The notes under the pieces were generated by a model. That model was given only the letters and a program-made list of their open reading frames with translations, was not told the DNA's origin and did no database searches. Positions 5,303 to 41,613 of a DNA stretch of 64,000 nt are shown in pieces. Origin of the DNA: an uncultured Alphaproteobacteria bacterium (GTDB lineage Bacteria; Pseudomonadota; Alphaproteobacteria; RF32; CAG-239); contig CALXRP010000008.1 of assembly GCA_944390885.1 (NCBI GenBank), forward strand, positions 5,019-69,018. Direction: 5' to 3'. Both the position numbers and the translations under genes were made by a program. Every line of letters begins with the position of its first letter. Position 1 is the stretch's first letter.

Positions 5303-6049
5303 ATGAAAAAACTTTTCGGACTTTTTGCAGTTTTATTTGGTTTGAGTTTGATAAGCGCTTGTGCAAGCACGCCCGAGGTCAACGAGAACGCTTCGGCAGA
5401 AGACCTTTATACACAGGCTCATCAGCTTTTGGAAAAAACATCTTATGCCAAAGCTGCGGAAACTTTTGAAAAAGTCGAACTGGAACACCCTTATTCCAAA
5501 TGGGCGACCAAGGCCAAACTGATGGGCGCTTATGCTTATTACAAAGACCAGAAATACGATGACGCCATCCTGAGCTTGGACCGCTTTATTAAATATCACC
5601 CGGGCAACCAAGATACGCCCTATGCTTATTATCTGAAAGCCCTGTGCTATTATGAGCAGATTGTAACGGTAGACAAAGACCAGAGTAACACTGCAAAAGC
5701 CAAAGAGGCGTTTGAACAGGTCATCAACCGTTTTCCTGACAGCGAATACGCCCAGGATGCCAAGCTGAAAATTGACCTGACCAATGACCACCTGGCCGGA
5801 AAAGAAATGGAAGTCGGACGTTACTACCTCAAGCAGAAAAACTATCTTTCGGCGCTGAACCGTTTTTCGGTTGTTGTAAATGAATATCAGACCACCAGCC
5901 ATATTGAAGAAGCTCTTTACCGCCAGGTAGAAATTTATACCATTCTCGGTTTGAATTCTGAGGCTCGCACGGCGGCCAAGGTTTTGGCCTACAACTATCC
6001 TGACGGCAAATGGACAAAGAAAGCCAAGGGGATTATCGGGAGCAAATAA
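5303..6049 (+). CDS. bamD: Outer membrane protein assembly factor BamD (TPR lipoprotein).
   Basis: A lipoprotein signal with lipobox (LISAC) is present, with TPR-like repeats. The lpxC-bamD-recN order is typical of alphaproteobacteria. Confidence 0.75.
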   Translation: MKKLFGLFAVLFGLSLISACASTPEVNENASAEDLYTQAHQLLEKTSYAKAAETFEKVELEHPYSKWATKAKLMGAYAYYKDQKYDDAILSLDRFIKYHPGNQDTPYAYYLKALCYYEQIVTVDKDQSNTAKAKEAFEQVINRFPDSEYAQDAKLKIDLTNDHLAGKEMEVGRYYLKQKNYLSALNRFSVVVNEYQTTSHIEEALYRQVEIYTILGLNSEARTAAKVLAYNYPDGKWTKKAKGIIGSK

Positions 6050-6054
6050 ACAAA

Positions 6055-7719
6055 ATGCTGCAATCGCTGTCTATCCGCAATGTTGTGCTTATTGACAAGC
6101 TGGATTTGGATTTCAAACCCGGTCTGAGCGTGCTGACCGGTGAAACCGGCGCCGGAAAGTCGATTCTGCTGGATTCCGTCGGACTGGTGCTCGGCAATCG
6201 GGCCGAAACCTCGCTCATCCGCCACGGCGAAGACAAACTGGCCGTTGCTGCATCTTTTTCTCTGCCCAAAGCAGAAAGCCCGCTGTGGTCGCTTTTTAAA
6301 GAAAACGAGCTGGAAGTTGAAGATGAGCTGATTATCAAACGCGTTTTGTCACGTGACGGCAAAGGCAAAATTTTTGTAAACGATCAGCCCGTCAGCGCCA
6401 AATTATTAAAAGAGATTGGCAAATATCTGGTAGAAATCCACGGACAATTTGATAATCAGGGACTGTTAAATCCGGCCAATCACCGCGATGTTCTGGACGC
6501 CTTCGGAGCATATCCGTTTTTGCTTGAGAATGCCAAAAACAAATTCATGGCTTACCGTTCGGCCAAAAAGGCGCGTCAGGAGGCGGAAGAAAATATTTTG
6601 CACGCCAAAGACGAGGAGGAAAATCTGCGCCATTGGATTGCGGAGCTTGAAAAAATAAATCCGGTTGCCGGTGAGGAAGACGAGCTTGGCAAACGCCGTC
6701 TGGAACTGATGAATGCCGAAAAAATTATTGAAAATCTGAATTATGCTTACGGAGCTTTAACCCAGGGCGCCGATGTTTTATCGGCTCTGCGTCAGGCACA
6801 ATCGGCCATTTATAAGGCCAATGATATGGTAGACGGCAAATATTCCGATATTATAGACGCCTTGGAACAGGCAATGATTGAGGCGGATGAAGCCGTTAAT
6901 CAGATTGAGAATGCTTCTTCCAATGTGGCGGTAGATACCAATGAACTGGAAGAAATTGAAAGTCGTTTGTTTGCTTTGCGCGGTCTGGCACGCAAACATC
7001 AGGTCGAAATAGATGCTTTGCCGCAGGTCTTGGTGGATTTTAAGCAAAAACTCAATAACATCGAATTTGGCGAAGAAGGACTGATTAAACTGCGTAAGGA
7101 AGAAGACGCCGCCAAGCTTGAATATGTCAAAGCGGCCAACGAACTGTCACAGGCCAGACAACAAGCTGCCGCCAAACTGGACGCTGCCGTTATGCAGGAA
7201 CTGCCGCCGCTGAAAATGGAAAAAGCCAAATTTGTTACTCAGTTCGGAAAGCTGGAAGAAGGAAGCTGGGGCGAAAACGGATTTGACACGGTTACATTTA
7301 CGGTTGCAACAAACCCGAACTCGCCGCAAGGGCCGATCAATAAAATTGCTTCCGGCGGAGAGCTGGCGCGTTTTATGCTGGCCTTAAAAGTTAACCTGGC
7401 TCAAAGCTCCAGCGTAGAAACAATGATTTTTGACGAGGTTGATGCCGGAGTAGGCGGTGCAACGGCACAAGCCGTGGGAGAAAGACTGGCGCGCCTGGCA
7501 CAGGGAGTTCAGGTTTTGGTGGTTACCCACTCGCCGCAAGTTGCTGCCAGAGGAAATAATCATTTCAAAGTCGAAAAAAATACTGTCGACAATATTACGA
7601 CAACCCGCGTCCGCGAATTGAGTAATGACGAAAAATGCGAAGAAATCGCCCGGATGCTGGCCGGCGAAACAGTCTCTGATGAAGCGCGAGCAGCAGCAAA
7701 AGTCCTGCTCAGTGCATAA
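6055..7719 (+). CDS. recN: DNA repair protein RecN.
   Basis: The N-terminus (MLQSLSIRNVVLIDKLDLDFKPGLSVLTGETGAGKSILLD) carries a Walker A motif. The protein is a coiled-coil SMC-like protein with a C-terminal signature region. Confidence 0.85.
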   Translation: MLQSLSIRNVVLIDKLDLDFKPGLSVLTGETGAGKSILLDSVGLVLGNRAETSLIRHGEDKLAVAASFSLPKAESPLWSLFKENELEVEDELIIKRVLSRDGKGKIFVNDQPVSAKLLKEIGKYLVEIHGQFDNQGLLNPANHRDVLDAFGAYPFLLENAKNKFMAYRSAKKARQEAEENILHAKDEEENLRHWIAELEKINPVAGEEDELGKRRLELMNAEKIIENLNYAYGALTQGADVLSALRQAQSAIYKANDMVDGKYSDIIDALEQAMIEADEAVNQIENASSNVAVDTNELEEIESRLFALRGLARKHQVEIDALPQVLVDFKQKLNNIEFGEEGLIKLRKEEDAAKLEYVKAANELSQARQQAAAKLDAAVMQELPPLKMEKAKFVTQFGKLEEGSWGENGFDTVTFTVATNPNSPQGPINKIASGGELARFMLALKVNLAQSSSVETMIFDEVDAGVGGATAQAVGERLARLAQGVQVLVVTHSPQVAARGNNHFKVEKNTVDNITTTRVRELSNDEKCEEIARMLAGETVSDEARAAAKVLLSA

Positions 7720-7908
7720 AATAAAAAATTAAATAGTTTTTCTCAATAAGGACTCATATTTCTTATCAAGAATAAAGTCTTCATATAAAAAATAATATAA
7801 TTTTTTCTGGCCTTAAAATCCATATGGAAAAGGCAAATATAATTTTCTTTCTATTTAACCGGTTTAATCAAATATATACAAAATATATTATATATTTTTC
7901 AATAAATA

Positions 7909-8004
7909 TTGACATTGTTTTTGTGGTGTGCTATTATTTTATATGAAAACACTCTCATGAGTATTTTCTCCGGCCTCGTTTTTCATCGGCTTAGAGGCCG
8001 GAGA
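7909..8004 (+). promoter_or_regulatory. Near-consensus sigma70 promoter followed by a stable hairpin. This may be a small-RNA candidate.
   Basis: The promoter is TTGACA (7909-7914), a 17 nt spacer and TATTAT (7932-7937). Inverted repeats tctccggcctc / gaggccggaga span 7967-8004. No convincing ORF follows before the repeat array. Confidence 0.3.
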
Positions 8005-8400
8005 TTCCCTACACGGCAGGAGGCCGGATCAGTTATCAATACTGAAACGCAGAGACCGCAATGCTGTGACGGGATTTGTGAATGGTAAGGTGCTTTGAAG
8101 TATTTGTCATTCTCGGCACATTATTTTTCTGTCATTCTCGGGCTTGACCCGAGAATCCAGATAAATAAATGGCCTTATTATTGACTTGGATTGCCGGGTG
8201 TAAATTCCCGCAAGCGGGCCCCTTTCGTCCCGTAGGGTTCGAACTTCGTACAAATCTAAGCTAAAGCTAAGGATTTGCACTTGTTCTCACCAACTATCGA
8301 CTTCAAGTCCGGCAATGACTAGAAAAAATAAAGTGCCCGGCAATGACAAAGAAAAAAGGACGACAATACAGAAAAGAATTTTTATTAACCATTCTGAGCA
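7960..8400. repeat. Mosaic array of short palindromic intergenic repeats, array 1. Units follow a GTCATTCTCGGG-loop-CCCGAGAATCC pattern, and GCCCGGCAATGAC half-units are also present.
   Basis: The palindrome gtcattctcgggcttgacccgagaatcc lies at 8131-8158 and a half copy at 8106-8119. gtccggcaatgac and gcccggcaatgac units lie at 8300-8345. The same units recur at 41.6-41.9 kb and 50.1-50.5 kb. Confidence 0.8.
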
Positions 8401-8516: not shown

Positions 8517-9923
8517 ATGAATAACACTATGCTACACATGAAACTTAACTCTGCGGTGTCAACCTTTGCCGTTGCCGCTGCTTTCGCCGTCTTCCTCCCG
8601 CCTTCCAATGCTTCGGCAGGTGTTTGCTTTCTGCCCGACTGTCAGGATGATGAGGTTGTTCAGGGCGATATTAATATGGACATTAACGAAGATTCCAGAT
8701 TTTGTGAGGAGAAAGGCTATACCTATTATTCTTCCGGCGAATGTCCGCAATATCAGGCTAAAGTCGGTACTTGTTCCCGTGATGATCATTACCTGAAATG
8801 TGATGCCGTTACCTGGTGTAAGAACAACGGCTATAATACGCAAACCTGTTCTCTGCCGTCCTTCGTAGACGGACAATGTCCGAACGGCAAACCTTATTAC
8901 AAACAATGTAAAGAAGACCGGCCGAGAGCCTGCCGCGAACAAGGCTATGTCAATTCTTGTTCTTCCGGACGGCTTTATGCTACCTCAAACCGCTGTCCCT
9001 GGGATAATTCTTACGGTAAATGCTGCACCGCTTCTCCGTCGACAGGTTGTCCGACCGATTATAAGGTTACCTGTGATTCTTCCCGTGGATCATCCGGAAC
9101 GGATACCTGCGGATATACCTGTTATCGCTGCTGTGATGATACCTGCCCGTCCGGAACTTCTAAAAATTACACCGGATCATACTCAACAACAACCGAATGC
9201 GGTACCAGATGTAACAGATGTAAATCTTGTCCGTCCGGTTCCAGTACTTCTTATACCGGATCTTATGCCGGAACGACCGAATGTAACGGCGGACAAAGCT
9301 GTTATAAATGTAATGATACCTGTCGAACGGGAGAAAAATCGGTTTCTTGTTCCTCGACTTATAAAAAGGTAAAGGTATCAACAACCGAATGCGGAACAGG
9401 ATGTTATGAGTGTCAATATAATACAGATTGTAATGTTACATCAAAATCATGCACCTATGGTTGTGCCTATACTAACTCCTGCGGTAAATGTATATCCTGT
9501 AAGTCTCATAGCCATAGCTATTCCTGCCCCTCCGGCTATCAGTCATCTTCCTGCGGATCAGGTTATACAACATCGGGTACAGCATATAAAACATGTTCTT
9601 GTGGGGCAACTTCTGGGACTTGTTATAAGTGTACCAAAAATTCAAGTGGTGGTTCCGGCGGAGGATCTTGCTGGATTGAGCACTCTTACCCATTTTCATC
9701 TTGTGCATCATCCAAGCGGGCTTATAACTCCGTTGATAGCAGATTGGCATGTCATTCGCACTCCGGCGGATGGGGATTTGACTTCCAATATTATTGTGAA
9801 GATCCCAATAATTATCTTTGGGAAACCCGTTGGGATTCCACTTGGACATGCTATTTTGCAACAAAATCGGAATGTGAAGCTAATTATAATCATTTGGCTA
9901 GTGGATATATTACAAACTCATAA
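8517..9923 (+). CDS. Secreted cysteine-rich modular protein, paralog A (468 aa). It is a novel family with no confident functional assignment.
   Basis: A signal peptide is present (MKLNSAVSTFAVAAAFAVFLPPSNASA). About 80 Cys occur in repeated modules (…SGTSKNYTGSYSTTTECGTRCNRCKSC…). An RBS (ggaaggagacc) lies upstream and a strong terminator downstream. The protein is near-identical to the 40345-41613 product over its N-terminal ~200 aa. Confidence 0.7.
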   Translation: MNNTMLHMKLNSAVSTFAVAAAFAVFLPPSNASAGVCFLPDCQDDEVVQGDINMDINEDSRFCEEKGYTYYSSGECPQYQAKVGTCSRDDHYLKCDAVTWCKNNGYNTQTCSLPSFVDGQCPNGKPYYKQCKEDRPRACREQGYVNSCSSGRLYATSNRCPWDNSYGKCCTASPSTGCPTDYKVTCDSSRGSSGTDTCGYTCYRCCDDTCPSGTSKNYTGSYSTTTECGTRCNRCKSCPSGSSTSYTGSYAGTTECNGGQSCYKCNDTCRTGEKSVSCSSTYKKVKVSTTECGTGCYECQYNTDCNVTSKSCTYGCAYTNSCGKCISCKSHSHSYSCPSGYQSSSCGSGYTTSGTAYKTCSCGATSGTCYKCTKNSSGGSGGGSCWIEHSYPFSSCASSKRAYNSVDSRLACHSHSGGWGFDFQYYCEDPNNYLWETRWDSTWTCYFATKSECEANYNHLASGYITNS

Positions 9924-36225: not shown

Positions 36226-36588
36226 ATGTCGGAAAAAATAAGATTTTTGTTAGGGCTGGTAGGAATTTGTGCGGCAAGCGCCTGCACCAATCTGGACGGT
36301 TTGTGCCCGCATTGCTATCCGCCGAAGAACCGCTATGTCTACCTGCGTGATAAAACCTATGCCAATGACGAACCCGTCATCCCTCTTCAAAATCTGATGA
36401 GCCGCACGGTTGTTTATTGCCACTCCACAGAAACAAACAGCGCCGAAACCTGTGCCGAAGTTTTTGAAAGCAATGGATATGTGCGTGTTCGGGATATCCC
36501 TTACAAAACGGCGGATTATGATTTCTTAAAAAACGATACTTACCCGACCCGCCGTTGGCGTAATGACGAGCTGACCCCGAGATGGTAG
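36226..36588 (+). CDS. Small Cys-containing lipoprotein of unknown function.
   Basis: A lipobox (ICAASAC) is present in a 120 aa ORF. Confidence 0.45.
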   Translation: MSEKIRFLLGLVGICAASACTNLDGLCPHCYPPKNRYVYLRDKTYANDEPVIPLQNLMSRTVVYCHSTETNSAETCAEVFESNGYVRVRDIPYKTADYDFLKNDTYPTRRWRNDELTPRW

Positions 36589-36598
36589 GAGAAAAGCC

Positions 36599-38122
36599 AT
36601 GCTCGCCAGAATAAACACCATCACATTCAACGGGCTGGAAATTCTTGATGTCGATTTGCAAATTCAGGTCACCTCAGGTCTTCCGGCCTTTAATATTGTC
36701 GGCCTGCCGGACAAGGCCATTGCCGAAAGCCGGGAACGCGTTCGAGCAGCGTTGCAGTCAATCGGACTGGCATTGCCGGCCAAACATATCACCATCAATT
36801 TATCTCCGGCCGATTTATATAAGGAAGGTTCTCATTTTGATTTGCCGGTAGCATTAGGCCTGATGGCCGTGATGGGCGTTATCCCGAATGAAATGCTGCT
36901 GGGCTACATTGCTCTGGGTGAGCTCGGATTGGACGGATCAATAATCCCGGTCAACGGCGTTCTGCCGGTGGCAATCAAAGCCGCAAGACAGGGAAAGGGG
37001 CTGATTTGCCCGCAGGCGCAGGGTAGTGAGGCCGCTTGGTCTGGGTTAAAAGAAATTGTGGCGGCGGACAATTTGCTGAGCCTGATAAACCATTTTAAGG
37101 GAACGCAGCTGCTGCCGTATCCCCGCCGCCGGACTGCCGAAGCCGGGTACTCCGGTTTAGATATGTCCGAAGTCAAAGGACAGGAAAGCGCTAAAAGAGC
37201 TTTTGAAATTGCGGCTGCCGGCGGACATAATCTGCTGATGGTCGGGCCTCCGGGCTCCGGAAAATCAATGCTTGCCGCCCGGATGCCGACGATTTTGCCG
37301 CCGCTGAGCCCGGAAGAAGCGCTTGAAACCAGCATGATTCATTCCGTCGCCGGTATTTTGAAAGACGGAAAAATTTGTTTTGAGCGCCCATACCGCGATC
37401 CCCACCACACATCCTCAACGCCGGCTTTGGTCGGCGGCGGACGCAAAGGCCAACCCGGAGAAATTTCTCTGGCGCATAACGGCGTTTTATTTCTTGATGA
37501 ACTGCCCGAATTCAGCCGCCCGACGCTCGAGGCGCTTCGCCAGCCGTTGGAAAACGGCACGGTCAGCATTTCCCGCGTTCATGCCCATACGACTTTCCCT
37601 GCGCGTTTCCAATTGATTGCCGCCATGAACCCCTGCCGCTGCGGATATTTAGGATCAAAAGGGCAGGAATGCGCAAGAGCTCCTTTGTGTGCGGCAGAAT
37701 ATCAGGCCAAACTTTCCGGCCCGTTGCTGGACCGGATTGATATGTATATCGAGGTTCCTGCCGTCAGCCCGTGGGATCTGGCAAATGTTAAAAAAGGCGA
37801 AAGCTCAGAAACGATTCGGTCCCGAGTCGTTGCCGCCCGAACGCTGCAAAAACAACGTTTTATCAAATTCGGGCATCCGGAATTGCATACAAATGCCGAA
37901 TTGAATGGTGAAATTTTAGAAAAAATAGCCGGACTTGACGATGAAGCAAAGTCGCTGCTGATAAGCTTTTCAGAGAAAAACAAGCTTTCAGCGCGCTCTT
38001 ATCATCGAATAATTCGTCTATCAAGAACAATTGCAGACTTGCAAAATAAAATAAATGTGAGTAGAATACACGTCGCAGAAGCATTGTCTTATCGCCGCAT
38101 TCTGCCAAATAAACGCATTTAG
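36599..38122 (+). CDS. comM: Mg-chelatase-like AAA+ ATPase YifB/ComM.
   Basis: The N-terminal Lon-like domain (…ESRERVRAALQS…) is followed by an AAA+ domain with Walker A (GPPGSGKSM) and a C-terminal Mg-chelatase ChlI-like region. Confidence 0.85.
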   Translation: MLARINTITFNGLEILDVDLQIQVTSGLPAFNIVGLPDKAIAESRERVRAALQSIGLALPAKHITINLSPADLYKEGSHFDLPVALGLMAVMGVIPNEMLLGYIALGELGLDGSIIPVNGVLPVAIKAARQGKGLICPQAQGSEAAWSGLKEIVAADNLLSLINHFKGTQLLPYPRRRTAEAGYSGLDMSEVKGQESAKRAFEIAAAGGHNLLMVGPPGSGKSMLAARMPTILPPLSPEEALETSMIHSVAGILKDGKICFERPYRDPHHTSSTPALVGGGRKGQPGEISLAHNGVLFLDELPEFSRPTLEALRQPLENGTVSISRVHAHTTFPARFQLIAAMNPCRCGYLGSKGQECARAPLCAAEYQAKLSGPLLDRIDMYIEVPAVSPWDLANVKKGESSETIRSRVVAARTLQKQRFIKFGHPELHTNAELNGEILEKIAGLDDEAKSLLISFSEKNKLSARSYHRIIRLSRTIADLQNKINVSRIHVAEALSYRRILPNKRI

Positions 38123-38134
38123 GAGACCAAAATA

Positions 38135-40294
38135 ATGAATTTTAAAAAGTCCTTAAGTATTTTCTTTGCCGCAGGAATACTGGGATCTTGCGCTTGGGAA
38201 AGCCCCGAGCTGATTCCCTGCGCCTGCAACAATCTGGCAGAAAGCGACCTTGGTTGGTTTACCTGCCTTTGCGGGTCTGACGGCCAGGTAAAAGAAAAGA
38301 GAAAAGTTGCCAAAAAGCAGGAAGTCCGCAGACAGGAACCCCGCAAACAGGTTAAACAAGTCAAAAAGACGGTAGTTCGCAAACAAGAACAAGTTTATCG
38401 TCCCGAGAGAGTTGTTGTTGAACGCACCCGCCGGGTTGCTCCTGCACCGCTGCCGTATTGCGATGAAGAGCCCGTTGTTCGCAAAAAATATACCCAAAGG
38501 ACTTTTGTTGCCGCAGATGTTGAAGAACCCCAATTGACTCGGGATGATCTGGCCTCCTTAAAACTCGAGTATGTTGATTTTCGTCTTGAAAACGGCGGCA
38601 GACAATATGATACCAAATTGGGCGATTATCGTTTCCGCATTTTCGGCTGCCGCAGAGAAAGCCGGAACGTGTTCCTGAATCAGGGGCGCGCCATGGAAAA
38701 AGATATGCGCTTCTTTGATATCTTTTTTGAAAATATGAATGAACTGTATCCGGTTGTTGTCGATCGTAACAGCCCGTTGTACGAGGTTTCTGACCGTATC
38801 CGCGTGCCGGAATATCTGTTGACGGCCGAAATTGTCGACTATCATATGAATATTTGTGATGAATTTGACTGGAACAATACTCAAAAGAAAAATACCCGCA
38901 CCGGAAGTTCGGAAATCACTATCGTATGGCGGTTAATGGATTTGTGCAAAACCCATGTATATTGGAAAGGAATGACCAACGGTTATGCCGAGGTAATGAG
39001 CGGTGAGCCGAATGGTGAAACCCTGTTGGTAGAGCGCGCATTCAGCGATGCCTTAAAACAGCTGCCGTATGTTTCCGGATTTGAGGAACAGATGACCAAA
39101 CGCGTCAGCCCCGAAGACCTGATGGCTCAACAGCGCTGCTGGGATACTTTGGAACAACGTGCCGAAACTTTCCAATGCGAATACAAAAAAGAAATCAGCC
39201 GTGCTGCAGACGAGCCGGTATATTATGAAAGCCCCTGCATTGAAGAAAGAAGCAGCTCCCGTTCAACAAATTATGTAATTGAGGATATCATTGAAGAAGA
39301 CGGCGGTGCTTTTGCCGAAGGGCGTTCTTTCCGTGAAGAAATCAAAGAGCGCGGCGGATCAGATTCTGACGGCAGCGTTTTCCGCAGCCAGATTATTGAA
39401 GACGGCGGTTCGTTTTCTTCCGGTGAAAGTTTCAAACCGGTCAAACCGAGAGAAAACCATGCTTTTGTTGAAGATTACTGGGTAGACGTTCCTCTTGACA
39501 AAGAAGTCAGTCAGGAAGTCATTGAAAATCGTGAGATTGTCGAAGATGCATTGATGAAAGATAAAAACAGCCTCTGCATTATGGCTCAGCGTCCATATAA
39601 TAAATTGACGCCGGAAACACTGTATCGCGTCCGTGCTTCAATTGTTGAGGTTAGCAATCCTTCCGGCAAAAAAGGTTCCGGACTTCTGATCTCCGACCAG
39701 TTCATCTTAACGTCGGCAGATCTGCTAAACAAAAATAACAACCGTTTTGACATCAAGACCATTAACGGCAAAGAAATGGCAGCATCTGCTTTTCGTGTAA
39801 ACCCAAACAAAAATGTAGCTTTGCTGTTGTTGGACAACAAAACGCAGTATAAACCGCTGCCGTTGACTTTGGATTTGCCGGAAGTTAACAAAGATGTATT
39901 AATGACCTTGGGCATGAAAGACCTGGCAGAAAGCGAAGGCTATCTGGATAGCAACGCCCGTGTTATCGGCTATCGTTACTCTCCGGAAAGAGGTGCCGAG
40001 ATTATGGTCAGCACCCGCGTTCAAAACCAAACCTTGGGCGGTGCTCTGCTGGATAAAAATGCCAACATCGTTGGTATGGCACATGCCGGCAAGAGAATGT
40101 CCGACGGACCGGATTTGTTTATCCCGATTGAAACGGCGATGAAGGCTTTGGATCTGACATTCTGTAACAAGCCGTTCACCAACGAAGCGCCTTGGGAAGA
40201 AGAAGTCAAACCGGCAACTCCGGTAGCAACAGCCATCGATACGGATAAGACGGATAAAGCCCCTGTCCCGATGGATGCCAAAGAGGCGAAGTAA
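38135..40294 (+). CDS. Large lipoprotein with a basic repeat region, an acidic repeat region, and a C-terminal trypsin-like (S1/DegP-like) domain whose catalytic triad appears substituted.
   Basis: A lipobox (ILGSC) is present. The basic region is K/R/Q-rich (KEKRKVAKKQEVRRQEPRKQVKQVKK…). The acidic region carries repeats of IIE(E)DGG.F..G.SF. The C-terminal region (…GSGLLISDQFILTSADLL…NVALLLLDN…QTLGGALLDKNANIVGMAHAG) aligns to the trypsin-fold motifs TAAHC, D and GDSGG. In this alignment His appears replaced by Asp and Ser by Leu. Confidence 0.5.
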   Translation: MNFKKSLSIFFAAGILGSCAWESPELIPCACNNLAESDLGWFTCLCGSDGQVKEKRKVAKKQEVRRQEPRKQVKQVKKTVVRKQEQVYRPERVVVERTRRVAPAPLPYCDEEPVVRKKYTQRTFVAADVEEPQLTRDDLASLKLEYVDFRLENGGRQYDTKLGDYRFRIFGCRRESRNVFLNQGRAMEKDMRFFDIFFENMNELYPVVVDRNSPLYEVSDRIRVPEYLLTAEIVDYHMNICDEFDWNNTQKKNTRTGSSEITIVWRLMDLCKTHVYWKGMTNGYAEVMSGEPNGETLLVERAFSDALKQLPYVSGFEEQMTKRVSPEDLMAQQRCWDTLEQRAETFQCEYKKEISRAADEPVYYESPCIEERSSSRSTNYVIEDIIEEDGGAFAEGRSFREEIKERGGSDSDGSVFRSQIIEDGGSFSSGESFKPVKPRENHAFVEDYWVDVPLDKEVSQEVIENREIVEDALMKDKNSLCIMAQRPYNKLTPETLYRVRASIVEVSNPSGKKGSGLLISDQFILTSADLLNKNNNRFDIKTINGKEMAASAFRVNPNKNVALLLLDNKTQYKPLPLTLDLPEVNKDVLMTLGMKDLAESEGYLDSNARVIGYRYSPERGAEIMVSTRVQNQTLGGALLDKNANIVGMAHAGKRMSDGPDLFIPIETAMKALDLTFCNKPFTNEAPWEEEVKPATPVATAIDTDKTDKAPVPMDAKEAK

Positions 40295-40299
40295 TTATA

Positions 40300-40340
40300 A
40301 AATAAAAACCCCGGAAGCGTAAAACTTCCGGGTTTTTCTT
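40300..40340. terminator. Bidirectional rho-independent terminator between convergent genes.
   Basis: The hairpin aaaccccggaagcgtaaaacttccgggttttt lies between the two convergent ORFs. Confidence 0.65.
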
Positions 40341-40344
40341 TTCC

Positions 40345-41613
40345 TTATTTGCACAGGTCTGCAGCAACAGCTTCGGCTTCAGCTTTTCCTGAATCACAAG
40401 AGTCATTCTTATAATTGGCCCAACATTCTTCCGGAGTGGAATAGCCGTTAACTCGGGTATGATAATATTTAACAAATTGTCCATTTTTATAAAGACTATG
40501 AGAACAAGTTGCAGCCACTGTCTGTGGAAATTTTAGATACCAGTGATAAGTTTCGTTCCTGTTATCTTGACAATTGGAGGCATAGCTTTGATGTGTTACA
40601 GAGTAGGTACATGGAGGTTCAGCCGGCTTAGATTTACAAGAAGTACATTTACCACAGGAGTTGGTAGAAGCACAACCATAATCGCAGGATTTTGAAGACA
40701 CAGAACAATCGGAATTATACTCGCAAGAATAGCAAGCCGTCCCGCATTCGGTTGTCGATACGCGGGTTTTTACATAATTGGAAGAGCAAGATACGGATTT
40801 CTGACCTGAGCGGCAGGTATCGGAACAAGCATAGCAGCTTCCGCACTCTGAAGATCCAACATAAGATCCGGTATAAGACCGGCTGCCGGAAGTACAGTCT
40901 TTACATCTGTTACATCTGGTACCGCATTCGGTAGTAGAAGCATAAGATCCGTGATAGTTTTTAGAAGTACCGGACGGACAGGTGTCATCACAGCAGCGGT
41001 AACAAGTATATCCGCAGGTATCTACACCGGACGAACCGCGGGACGGATCACAGGTGACTTTGTAACTGGACGGACAACCTGTCGACGGCGAAGCAGTACA
41101 ACATTTACCATAAGAATTATCCCACGGACAACGGTTTGTCGATTTATACAACCGTCCCGGAGAACAGGAGTTGACATATCCTTGTTCGCGGCAGGCTCTC
41201 GGCCGGTCTTCTTTACAACCCTTGTAATAAGGTTTGCCGTTCGGACATTGGTCGTTAACAAAGGACGGCAGAGAACAGGTCTGCGTATTATAGCCGTTAT
41301 TCTTACACCAGGTAACGGCATCACATTTCAGGTAATGATCATCACGGGAACAAGTACCGACTTTAGCCTGATATTGCGGACATTCGCCGGAAGAATAATA
41401 GGTATAGCCTTTCTCCTCGCAATACTCGGTATCGGAGTTGATGTTCATATTAATATCGCCCTGAACAATCTCATCATCCTGACAGTCCGGCAGAAAACAA
41501 ATGCCAGCTGAAGCATTGGAAGGCGGGAGAAAGACCGCAAAAGCAGCGGCAACAGCAAGAACCGACACCGCAGAGTTAAGTTTCATGTGTAGCATAGTGT
41601 TATAATTTTTCAT
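40345..41613 (-). CDS. Secreted cysteine-rich modular protein, paralog B (≈415-422 aa).
   Basis: The signal peptide and first ~200 aa match paralog A at >90% DNA identity. The same Cys-rich modules are present, with a divergent central and C-terminal part. Confidence 0.7.
   Translation of the reverse strand: MKNYNTMLHMKLNSAVSVLAVAAAFAVFLPPSNASAGICFLPDCQDDEIVQGDINMNINSDTEYCEEKGYTYYSSGECPQYQAKVGTCSRDDHYLKCDAVTWCKNNGYNTQTCSLPSFVNDQCPNGKPYYKGCKEDRPRACREQGYVNSCSPGRLYKSTNRCPWDNSYGKCCTASPSTGCPSSYKVTCDPSRGSSGVDTCGYTCYRCCDDTCPSGTSKNYHGSYASTTECGTRCNRCKDCTSGSRSYTGSYVGSSECGSCYACSDTCRSGQKSVSCSSNYVKTRVSTTECGTACYSCEYNSDCSVSSKSCDYGCASTNSCGKCTSCKSKPAEPPCTYSVTHQSYASNCQDNRNETYHWYLKFPQTVAATCSHSLYKNGQFVKYYHTRVNGYSTPEECWANYKNDSCDSGKAEAEAVAADLCK

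Follow-up and report, generated by a model that had tools for sequence, protein, structure and literature searches.

An HtrA-like lipoprotein with a replaced catalytic triad, conserved among uncultured gut Alphaproteobacteria

A 64,000-nucleotide stretch of contig CALXRP010000008.1 from an uncultured member of the Alphaproteobacteria (assembly GCA_944390885.1; the whole stretch analysed is called the window below) encodes a 719-amino-acid (aa) lipoprotein with a protease-like C-terminal domain. We find that this protein is very probably a functional pseudoenzyme and not a decaying gene, because nowhere in the molecule is constraint stronger than in its catalytically dead domain. All three residues of the serine-protease triad are replaced, the same replacements recur throughout a large family from gut and rumen bacteria, and a sister family with the same two-domain layout retains the triad. 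An initial annotation, made from the letters of the window only, had already proposed a lipoprotein pseudoprotease and had paired it with a neighbouring Cys-rich gene.

Loss of the catalytic triad

The C-terminal part of the protein matches the Pfam profile Trypsin_2 over residues 514–648 (E = 1.7e-9; 39 bits against a gathering cutoff of 27.6), with the profile covered over its full length (1–144), and a phmmer search of the PDB returned Mycobacterium tuberculosis HtrA1 (7w4r; E = 9e-5). In the HtrA1 alignment, fILTsADll lies opposite yIVTNAHVI, so that Asp529 occupies the position of the catalytic His; nkNvAll lies opposite ktDlAvl, with Asn560 at the position of the catalytic Asp; and nqtLGGaLlD lies opposite hGNSGGPLID, with Leu634 at the position of the catalytic Ser. 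The initial annotation had equated ILTSADLL with LTNAHVV and QTLGGALLD with GNSGGAL, and from these had read a change of His to Asp and of Ser to Leu; the alignment bears out both and shows that the third triad residue, beyond the two named there, is likewise replaced (Asp to Asn560).

Modelling of the whole protein by AlphaFold from 27 sequences gave moderate confidence (predicted local distance difference test (pLDDT) 54 overall) and two folded regions, residues ~135–345 and 450–680 (pLDDT 70–85), with disordered linkers between them. A Foldseek search of the PDB with this full model matched MucD, DegP, DegQ, DegS, HtrA1, HtrA2, Rv0983, Rv3671c and the S1C-like domain of RsgI9 (E 3e-9 to 6e-8; probability 1.0; target-normalised template-modelling (TM) score up to 0.72, reached against protease-only chains). 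The top 50 PDB matches are nearly all HtrA-type S1C proteases, together with the RsgI9 domain. Structure prediction and comparison with HtrA/DegP, the check that had been suggested for the fold, thus recovers a chymotrypsin fold, and at the level of the predicted structure the C-terminal domain is confirmed as HtrA/S1C-type. By fold and Trypsin_2 profile it sits with the S1C/HtrA proteases; it lacks their His-Asp-Ser triad and their one or two C-terminal PDZ domains, since Pfam at E up to 1 gave no PDZ match and just 41 residues come after the protease domain.

Fixation and selection

The family to which the protein belongs is large, with at least 519 clusters in the protein database and members in 252 GTDB species-level genomes. 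A triad census of all retrieved members of at least 380 aa found H-D-S in none of 154 dead-family proteins and D-N-[L/I/V] in 135 of them. In an alignment of 27 sequences with identity down to ~39% (alignment A1), D529 and N560 do not vary, and conservation at L634 is at least 90%. Because the same substitutions are fixed across so large a family, the replacement of the triad lies far beyond chance. Synteny and host titles were taken from 80 loci kept out of the 252 species-level genomes; by their titles, nearly all are metagenome-assembled genomes (MAGs) of uncultured Alphaproteobacteria, from the gut or rumen of human, mouse, rabbit, horse, deer, sheep and yak, and two of the 80 are binned under names other than Alphaproteobacteria.

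Pairwise ratios of nonsynonymous to synonymous substitution rates (dN/dS), calculated by region against four close orthologs, are lowest in the dead protease domain (0.008–0.018), followed by the N-terminal domain (N-domain; 0.02–0.045). The repeat region (0.07–0.17) and the C-terminal tail (0.11–0.23) are the least constrained parts of the protein. The protein therefore combines what defines a pseudoenzyme—homology to an active family, replaced catalytic residues, fixation of that loss and purifying selection. With every triad position replaced, not one H-D-S member among 154 and strong purifying selection, the call of a pseudoprotease stands, and we regard a conserved pseudoprotease descended from active lipoprotein proteases as very probable. 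One ortholog, L006, was excluded from the dN/dS comparison for its absurd values; its reading frame (6001–8151) has an in-frame stop or frameshift past the N-terminal linker, the mark of either an assembly error or a disrupted copy.

An active sister family

An exhaustive phmmer search with the N-domain against 1.84 billion (1.84e9) representatives recovered just 98 proteins, ~40 of which are members of the dead family. The rest form a distant tier (N-domain E 5e-18 to 1e-3; 21–32% identity) of proteins of ~430–460 aa that run from a lipoprotein signal through the N-domain to Trypsin_2, with strong protease profiles (E ~1e-28 to 1e-32) and intact TNxH, RDVA and GNSGG motifs. P0160 from this tier, for example, has intact LIMTNFHVV, KRDVAII and GGNSGGALLD, and within the window both of its domains match just the open reading frame (ORF) of the pseudoprotease. 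The census found H-D-S in 139 of 146 members of the tier. This active sister family comprises at least 243 clusters from free-living (soil, marine) Rhodospirillales, including the cultured Shumkonia mesophila (P0296), and is annotated solely as 'S1C family serine protease'.

The dead protein shares the layout of the sister family—lipobox, homologous N-domain (with G163, C172, C241 and W265 conserved) and S1C domain, in the same order—but not its intact triad. The Rhodospirillales proteases also differ in being shorter (~440 aa), in belonging to free-living organisms and not to bacteria of gut hosts, and in having neither the CxC...CxC motif nor the repeat region nor the conserved C-terminal tail of the dead branch; in the six genomic contexts examined they do not adjoin yifB. 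Two of these six (L081 and L086) have the order hisB (divergent), protease, hslV, hslU, and the remaining four lie elsewhere. In ~30 dead-family loci (L012–L044 and others), hslV-hslU is likewise directly downstream. Because hslVU directly follows both dead and active genes, the gene order supports positional orthology of the two for part of the family.

We infer by parsimony that the gut family arose from an active lipoprotein protease family as a branch without catalysis; the N-domain has no outgroup, and the direction of change from active to dead rests on that parsimony, not on a rooted phylogeny. Within the active tier the triad has been lost independently, to A-G-P in P0183 and P0216, to G-G-A in P0185 and to T-G-R in P0195. 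Conversion to a pseudoenzyme has therefore taken place more than once on the lipoprotein S1C scaffold, which suggests a protease-independent role of the scaffold and makes such a role plausible. In one distant N-domain relative (P0165; 304 aa), a CorC_HlyC transporter-associated domain stands in place of the protease, which may reflect another architecture or a chimeric gene call.

Lipoprotein anchor and N-terminal domain

The ORF begins with ATG and is preceded by a Shine–Dalgarno-like TAGGAGA. Its N terminus, MNFKKSLSIFFAAGILGSC, reads as a signal peptide with a lipobox, and in the lipobox stretch MNFKKSLSIFFAAGILGS-C19 (...AAGILGS-C19) both Ser18 and Cys19 are invariant in 27 homologs. The signal peptide and the unvarying Cys of the lipobox mark the protein as a predicted lipoprotein, in line with the initial annotation, and a homolog (P0067) is labelled 'lipoprotein' by the Joint Genome Institute (JGI). 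The protein would be anchored in the periplasm, probably at the outer membrane if the Escherichia coli +2 rule applies, because the residue at +2 after the lipobox Cys is Ala or Ser and not Asp.

The N-domain, which the initial annotation missed, holds most of the invariant columns of the alignment (KLGNYRFRIFGCRR...LTAEIxDYxMNxCDExDW...GETLLVERAF). A model of the N-domain only, built on 24 subsequences (alignment A3), reached pLDDT 71.6, with 85–94 in the core, and has the form of a beta-alpha-beta-beta-beta-alpha sandwich. Foldseek matched it to CsgG, LptE, PelC, Cj1090c, CC_3750, CT253 and HpaA, all of them envelope lipoproteins, with E 6e-5 to 1e-3 and probability ~1.0 but TM scores of 0.3–0.5 and 6–13% identity. 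None of 24 N-domain sequences matched Pfam at E up to 10, the CsgG, LptE and PelC families included. The modelled N-domain thus appears to resemble the CsgG/LptE/PelC outer-membrane-lipoprotein fold at the level of the fold and not of family membership. Its modelled alpha/beta sandwich may correspond to that of CsgG, LptE, PelC and HpaA, which are lipoproteins of the Gram-negative envelope; unlike them, it has a near-invariant 40-residue loop (residues 151–190) of its own, in which G163, C172 and G184 are conserved also in the active relatives. The loop may serve for interaction or insertion. For the N-domain there is no pointer to a function as pore, ring or lipopolysaccharide plug.

Possible functions

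The reading that we favour joins the pseudoprotease to a binding mechanism. The protein would be an envelope lipoprotein tethered in the periplasm, with two folded modules carried on disordered and repeat linkers. Its retained substrate cleft might take up polypeptide in an extended or unfolded state, or another ligand, and leave it uncut, given that the backbone-forming GG loop is preserved; the dead domain could thereby act as a holdase, substrate trap or scaffold, and the N-domain might provide localisation or oligomerisation. DegP keeps its chaperone function without the catalytic Ser. The S1C domain of RsgI9 is reported to bind cellulose (PMC12203970), a precedent for binding by an S1C-like domain. 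The ligand-binding mechanism draws its support from analogy with these two, the protease-dead chaperone and the S1C-like binding domain. Taken whole, the favoured reading seems to us somewhat likelier to be right than wrong; the holdase or scaffold mechanism taken separately is tentative, and we would rate it a little below an even chance.

Several points weigh against the favoured reading. The holdase or scaffold mechanism is itself something that we infer. The models are moderately confident (pLDDT 54 over the full length, 70–85 in the domains), and Foldseek, at TM 0.3–0.5, is the sole source of the N-domain fold assignment. The former active site of the dead family is surrounded by near-invariant polar residues, Ser527, Asp529, Asn560 and His650. 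This pattern suggests that the cleft is no generic peptide groove but a specific site that has been remodelled. Ser527 is present in 146 of 154 dead-family members and His650 in 142, at positions where the active relatives have Asn and Tyr or Val, respectively. His650 aligns with the Thr of the HtrA motif 'GINTAG', which adjoins the old active site, and in textbook chymotrypsin numbering we take the four residues to be positions 55, 57, 102 and 214, clustered at the active site. As read from the alignments, the former active site looks remodelled and not merely destroyed.

A surface-exposed, host-facing adhesin or binding lipoprotein, in which the dead fold and the variable Gly/Asp repeats would bind a host or dietary glycan or mucin, would suit a family restricted to gut and rumen MAGs. 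A neuraminyllactose-binding hemagglutinin homolog and Helicobacter pylori HpaA belong to the fold group of the N-domain, and lipoproteins of the HpaA type act as adhesins. The length of the repeat region differs greatly between homologs, and few parts of the protein are under weaker constraint. The RsgI9 S1C domain, reported to bind cellulose (PMC12203970), is among the top structural matches. However, dN/dS is well below 1 throughout, with no sign of diversifying selection, and the same N-domain occurs in a sister family of free-living soil and marine Rhodospirillales, which argues that it is not a host-adaptation module. We consider this alternative rather unlikely.

Regulation of active paralogs is a common role of pseudoenzymes, the protease domain mediates oligomerisation in HtrA, and the strongest constraint here falls on the dead domain. 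The protein might accordingly form mixed oligomers with, or dock on, an active HtrA/DegP-type protease or another envelope enzyme, tuning its activity or localising it to the membrane; lipoproteins that partner HtrA have been described, mycobacteria being one case (PMC6538288). Such a role as a regulatory pseudoenzyme is, in our view, decidedly unlikely, with no active S1C paralog within the window and none conserved in the 80 loci.

The remodelled site raises the question of whether the protein might still be an enzyme, with Ser527, Asp529, Asn560 and His650 forming a relocated or unconventional catalytic or metal-binding centre. All four polar residues set the dead family apart and hardly vary within it, and their apparent mapping to chymotrypsin positions 55, 57, 102 and 214 would place them together. 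The initial annotation had itself allowed that His and Ser might prove to be conserved elsewhere, and Ser527 and His650 do lie near the old site, yet they do not rescue the chemistry: an aliphatic residue takes the place of the nucleophile (Leu, Ile or Val in 135 of the 154 members), the residue before it (the Asn of GNSGG) is Thr, Ser or Ala, and the oxyanion-loop Gly has become Gln or Val. Because the nucleophile position is aliphatic and the oxyanion-loop Gly and Asn are replaced, ordinary serine-protease chemistry is excluded on the evidence of the aligned residues. Position 55, moreover, is normally buried, and we know of no hydrolase that uses a Ser55/Asp57/Asn102/His214 arrangement. We therefore hold continued enzymatic activity to be highly improbable. 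A more far-reaching idea, in which a rebuilt Asp(57)-Asn(102)-His(214)-Ser(55) ligand, metal or unconventional catalytic centre would combine with the CsgG/PelC-like N-domain and its invariant loop in an outer-membrane-associated ring or cage of a new type in gut Alphaproteobacteria, appears very unlikely.

Relation to known systems

The C-terminal domain shares with HtrA, DegP, DegQ, DegS and MucD (MEROPS S1C) the double beta-barrel chymotrypsin fold, and the framework motifs GSG..., LT, VA.L, GG.L.D..G..VG and FIPI align. It differs from this group in having D/N/L for His-Asp-Ser, no PDZ domain and a lipoprotein anchor, and in the addition of an unrelated N-terminal alpha/beta domain, a repeat region and a C-terminal tail. 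The S1C-like sensor domain of Clostridium thermocellum RsgI9 (7sjy), third among the structural matches, is likewise a bacterial S1C protease-like fold, employed there for binding or sensing and not for proteolysis. RsgI9, unlike the pseudoprotease, is the ectodomain of a Gram-positive anti-sigma factor with an NTF2 fusion; there is no sequence relation beyond the fold, and cellulose is not implied as a ligand here. Haptoglobin, azurocidin, HGF and protein Z are vertebrate PA-clan pseudoproteases. They follow the same principle, in which selection maintains a triad-substituted chymotrypsin fold for binding, but in an unrelated lineage, architecture and cellular context.

Pseudoproteases are known as a kind; bacterial examples of the S1C type are rare and barely documented, and our literature searches returned nothing specific on HtrA-like pseudoprotease lipoproteins, on the dead family, on its active sister family or on the gut clade. 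The gene, which all sampled members of one uncultured gut clade apparently carry, currently bears the misleading database label 'trypsin-like peptidase', and the N-domain is an unannotated sequence family outside Pfam coverage. The two branches amount to a natural experiment: one is active and free-living, and in the other, from gut and rumen, the triad was replaced and frozen under extreme purifying selection, with a CxC motif, repeats and a C-terminal tail gained alongside the loss of the triad. Comparison of both should reveal a non-catalytic function of the HtrA fold. The case is a clean pseudoenzyme with an informative active sister group; it has no direct link to a long-standing open question.

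Segments specific to the dead branch

The two folded regions are joined and flanked by segments of very different character (Table 1). Two Cys, Cys481 and Cys677, are invariant, specific to the dead branch and bracket the protease domain. The N-terminal linker is strongly basic, as had been annotated from its K/R/Q tract: residues 50–110 are 44% K/R/Q, with a net charge of +13. Part of it is encoded by a 15-base-pair tandem repeat (CAGGAACCCCGCAAA; 38318–38351; 2.3 copies), which specifies QEPRK units, and the wide variation in linker length among homologs is consistent with repeat slippage. The acidic IIEDGG triple repeat described in the same annotation is also there, as IIEEDGGAFAEGRSF at residue 385, IKERGGSDSDGSVF at 403 and IIEDGGSFSSGESF at 420. 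These repeats are the short form of a variable Gly/Asp-rich region that expands by up to several hundred residues in homologs and that, in the longer ones, matches Bflower_2 and DUF3659. In the C-terminal tail, which has low pLDDT, A700, D702, K708, P710 and K719 are invariant in alignment A1.

Table 1 Features of the pseudoprotease gene and its immediate surroundings (positions within the window; residues are those of the 719-aa protein)
Feature	Coordinates	Strand	Evidence and remarks
Small lipoprotein gene, 120 aa, invariant C terminus TYPTRRWR..E.TPRW	36226..36588	+	73/80 loci; 2–16 nt upstream of yifB
yifB/comM-type Mg-chelatase-like AAA+ gene	36599..38122	+	Pfam Mg_chelatase, ChlI; 79/80 loci; 12-nt gap to pseudoprotease
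Whole pseudoprotease gene: 719-aa lipoprotein, N-terminal CsgG/LptE-like domain and C-terminal dead HtrA-like domain	38135..40294	+	ORF list
Signal peptide and lipobox, residues 1–19, ILGS-C19	38135..38191	+	Sequence; S18 and C19 invariant in alignment A1
SPE..PCxC...CxC motif, residues 23–46 (C29, C31, C44, C46)	38201..38272	+	Invariant in A1; absent from active relatives
Basic K/R/Q-rich linker, residues 50–110, variable length, predicted disordered	38282..38464	+	Composition; pLDDT <35
N-domain, residues ~135–345, alpha/beta, common to active sister family	38537..39169	+	Invariant columns, model, Foldseek
Near-invariant 40-residue loop, residues 151–190, KLGxYRFRIFGCRR...LNQGRAMxKD	38585..38704	+	Invariant columns; pLDDT <50 in both models
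Three acidic Gly-rich repeats, residues 385–435	39287..39439	+	Repeat positions; dN/dS 0.07–0.17
Dead HtrA/S1C-like protease domain, residues 480–678, flanked by invariant C481 and C677	39572..40168	+	Pfam, PDB alignment, Foldseek, dN/dS
Asp529 at catalytic His position	39719..39721	+	HtrA1 and active-relative alignments; invariant in A1; triad census
Asn560 at catalytic Asp position	39812..39814	+	HtrA1, A1 and active-relative alignments; triad census
Leu634 at catalytic Ser position (L/I/V across family), GG of GNSGG kept	40034..40036	+	HtrA1, A1 and active-relative alignments; triad census
His650, dead-family signature (Tyr/Val in active relatives)	40082..40084	+	142/154 dead members against 3 active members with His
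C-terminal tail, residues 679–719, end motif A-I-D..K.DKAP..M..KE.K-COOH	40169..40291	+	Invariant columns; absent in active relatives
Bidirectional intrinsic hairpin terminator common to both convergent genes	40310..40332	.	Shared with the Cys-rich gene

Gene neighbourhood

Upstream of the pseudoprotease lies a conserved block, likewise missed in the initial annotation, in which a small lipoprotein gene (73 of 80 loci) and yifB (79 of 80) precede the pseudoprotease gene, with rpsF and rplI beyond. Since the intergenic gaps in the block are 2–16 nucleotides (12 between the yifB stop and the pseudoprotease start), co-transcription of all three is probable. In the small lipoprotein the C terminus (GYVRLRDIPYKTA.YDFLK.DTYPTRRWR..E.TPRW-COOH) and two Cys are invariant; the protein gave no match to Pfam, NCBIfam or PDB profiles, and is a candidate partner of the pseudoprotease. 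A functional link to hslVU or to yifB was considered and rejected: both are cytoplasmic ATPase systems, and their adjacency is most simply read as conserved gene order.

Downstream of the dead gene the order varies, with hslVU-hemW-like genes in ~30 loci, pilin-like paralogs in 15 and other genes elsewhere. In the pilin-like cases (L062 and 14 other loci), two tandem type IV pilin-like paralogs of ~200 aa follow, with the N-terminal sequence MIEMLGVLAIIGVLSVGG. The window departs from the hslVU arrangement: here the next genes are the Cys-rich gene, smpB and an RNase E/G-like gene.

The Cys-rich ORF (422 aa; 40345..41613, reverse strand) is convergent with the pseudoprotease gene and has a terminator in common with it, just as the initial annotation had described. 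The functional pairing suggested from this, in which the pseudoprotease would serve Cys-rich paralog B as its own binding partner, maturation chaperone or immunity protein, fared differently. A Cys-rich homolog does adjoin the gene in the closest relatives, L001–L003, too, but homologs of the pseudoprotease are not always next to Cys-rich family members: no more than 5 of 80 loci have one within 6 kb, all five among the ten closest relatives, and a homology-free screen found large Cys-rich ORFs just in close relatives, in multiple copies and at varying positions, the genes downstream being otherwise hslVU or pilin-like. With a second copy 30 kb away in the window, a pseudoprotease family far older and broader than the adjacency, and a common terminator that any convergent gene pair would have, synteny largely refutes the pairing, which we discount as barely credible. 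Of the initial annotation as a whole, the pseudoprotease call holds on fold, triad, fixation and selection, and the Cys-rich pairing does not.

The Cys-rich proteins themselves look like a lineage-specific multicopy family. They have no Pfam match, and the two paralogs in the window (8517–9923, forward strand; 40345–41613, reverse strand) are ~11% Cys, secreted and 83% identical over the first 331 residues. Further Cys-rich copies lie at 1782–2534 in L001, 837–2366 in L003 and 615–1574 in L007.

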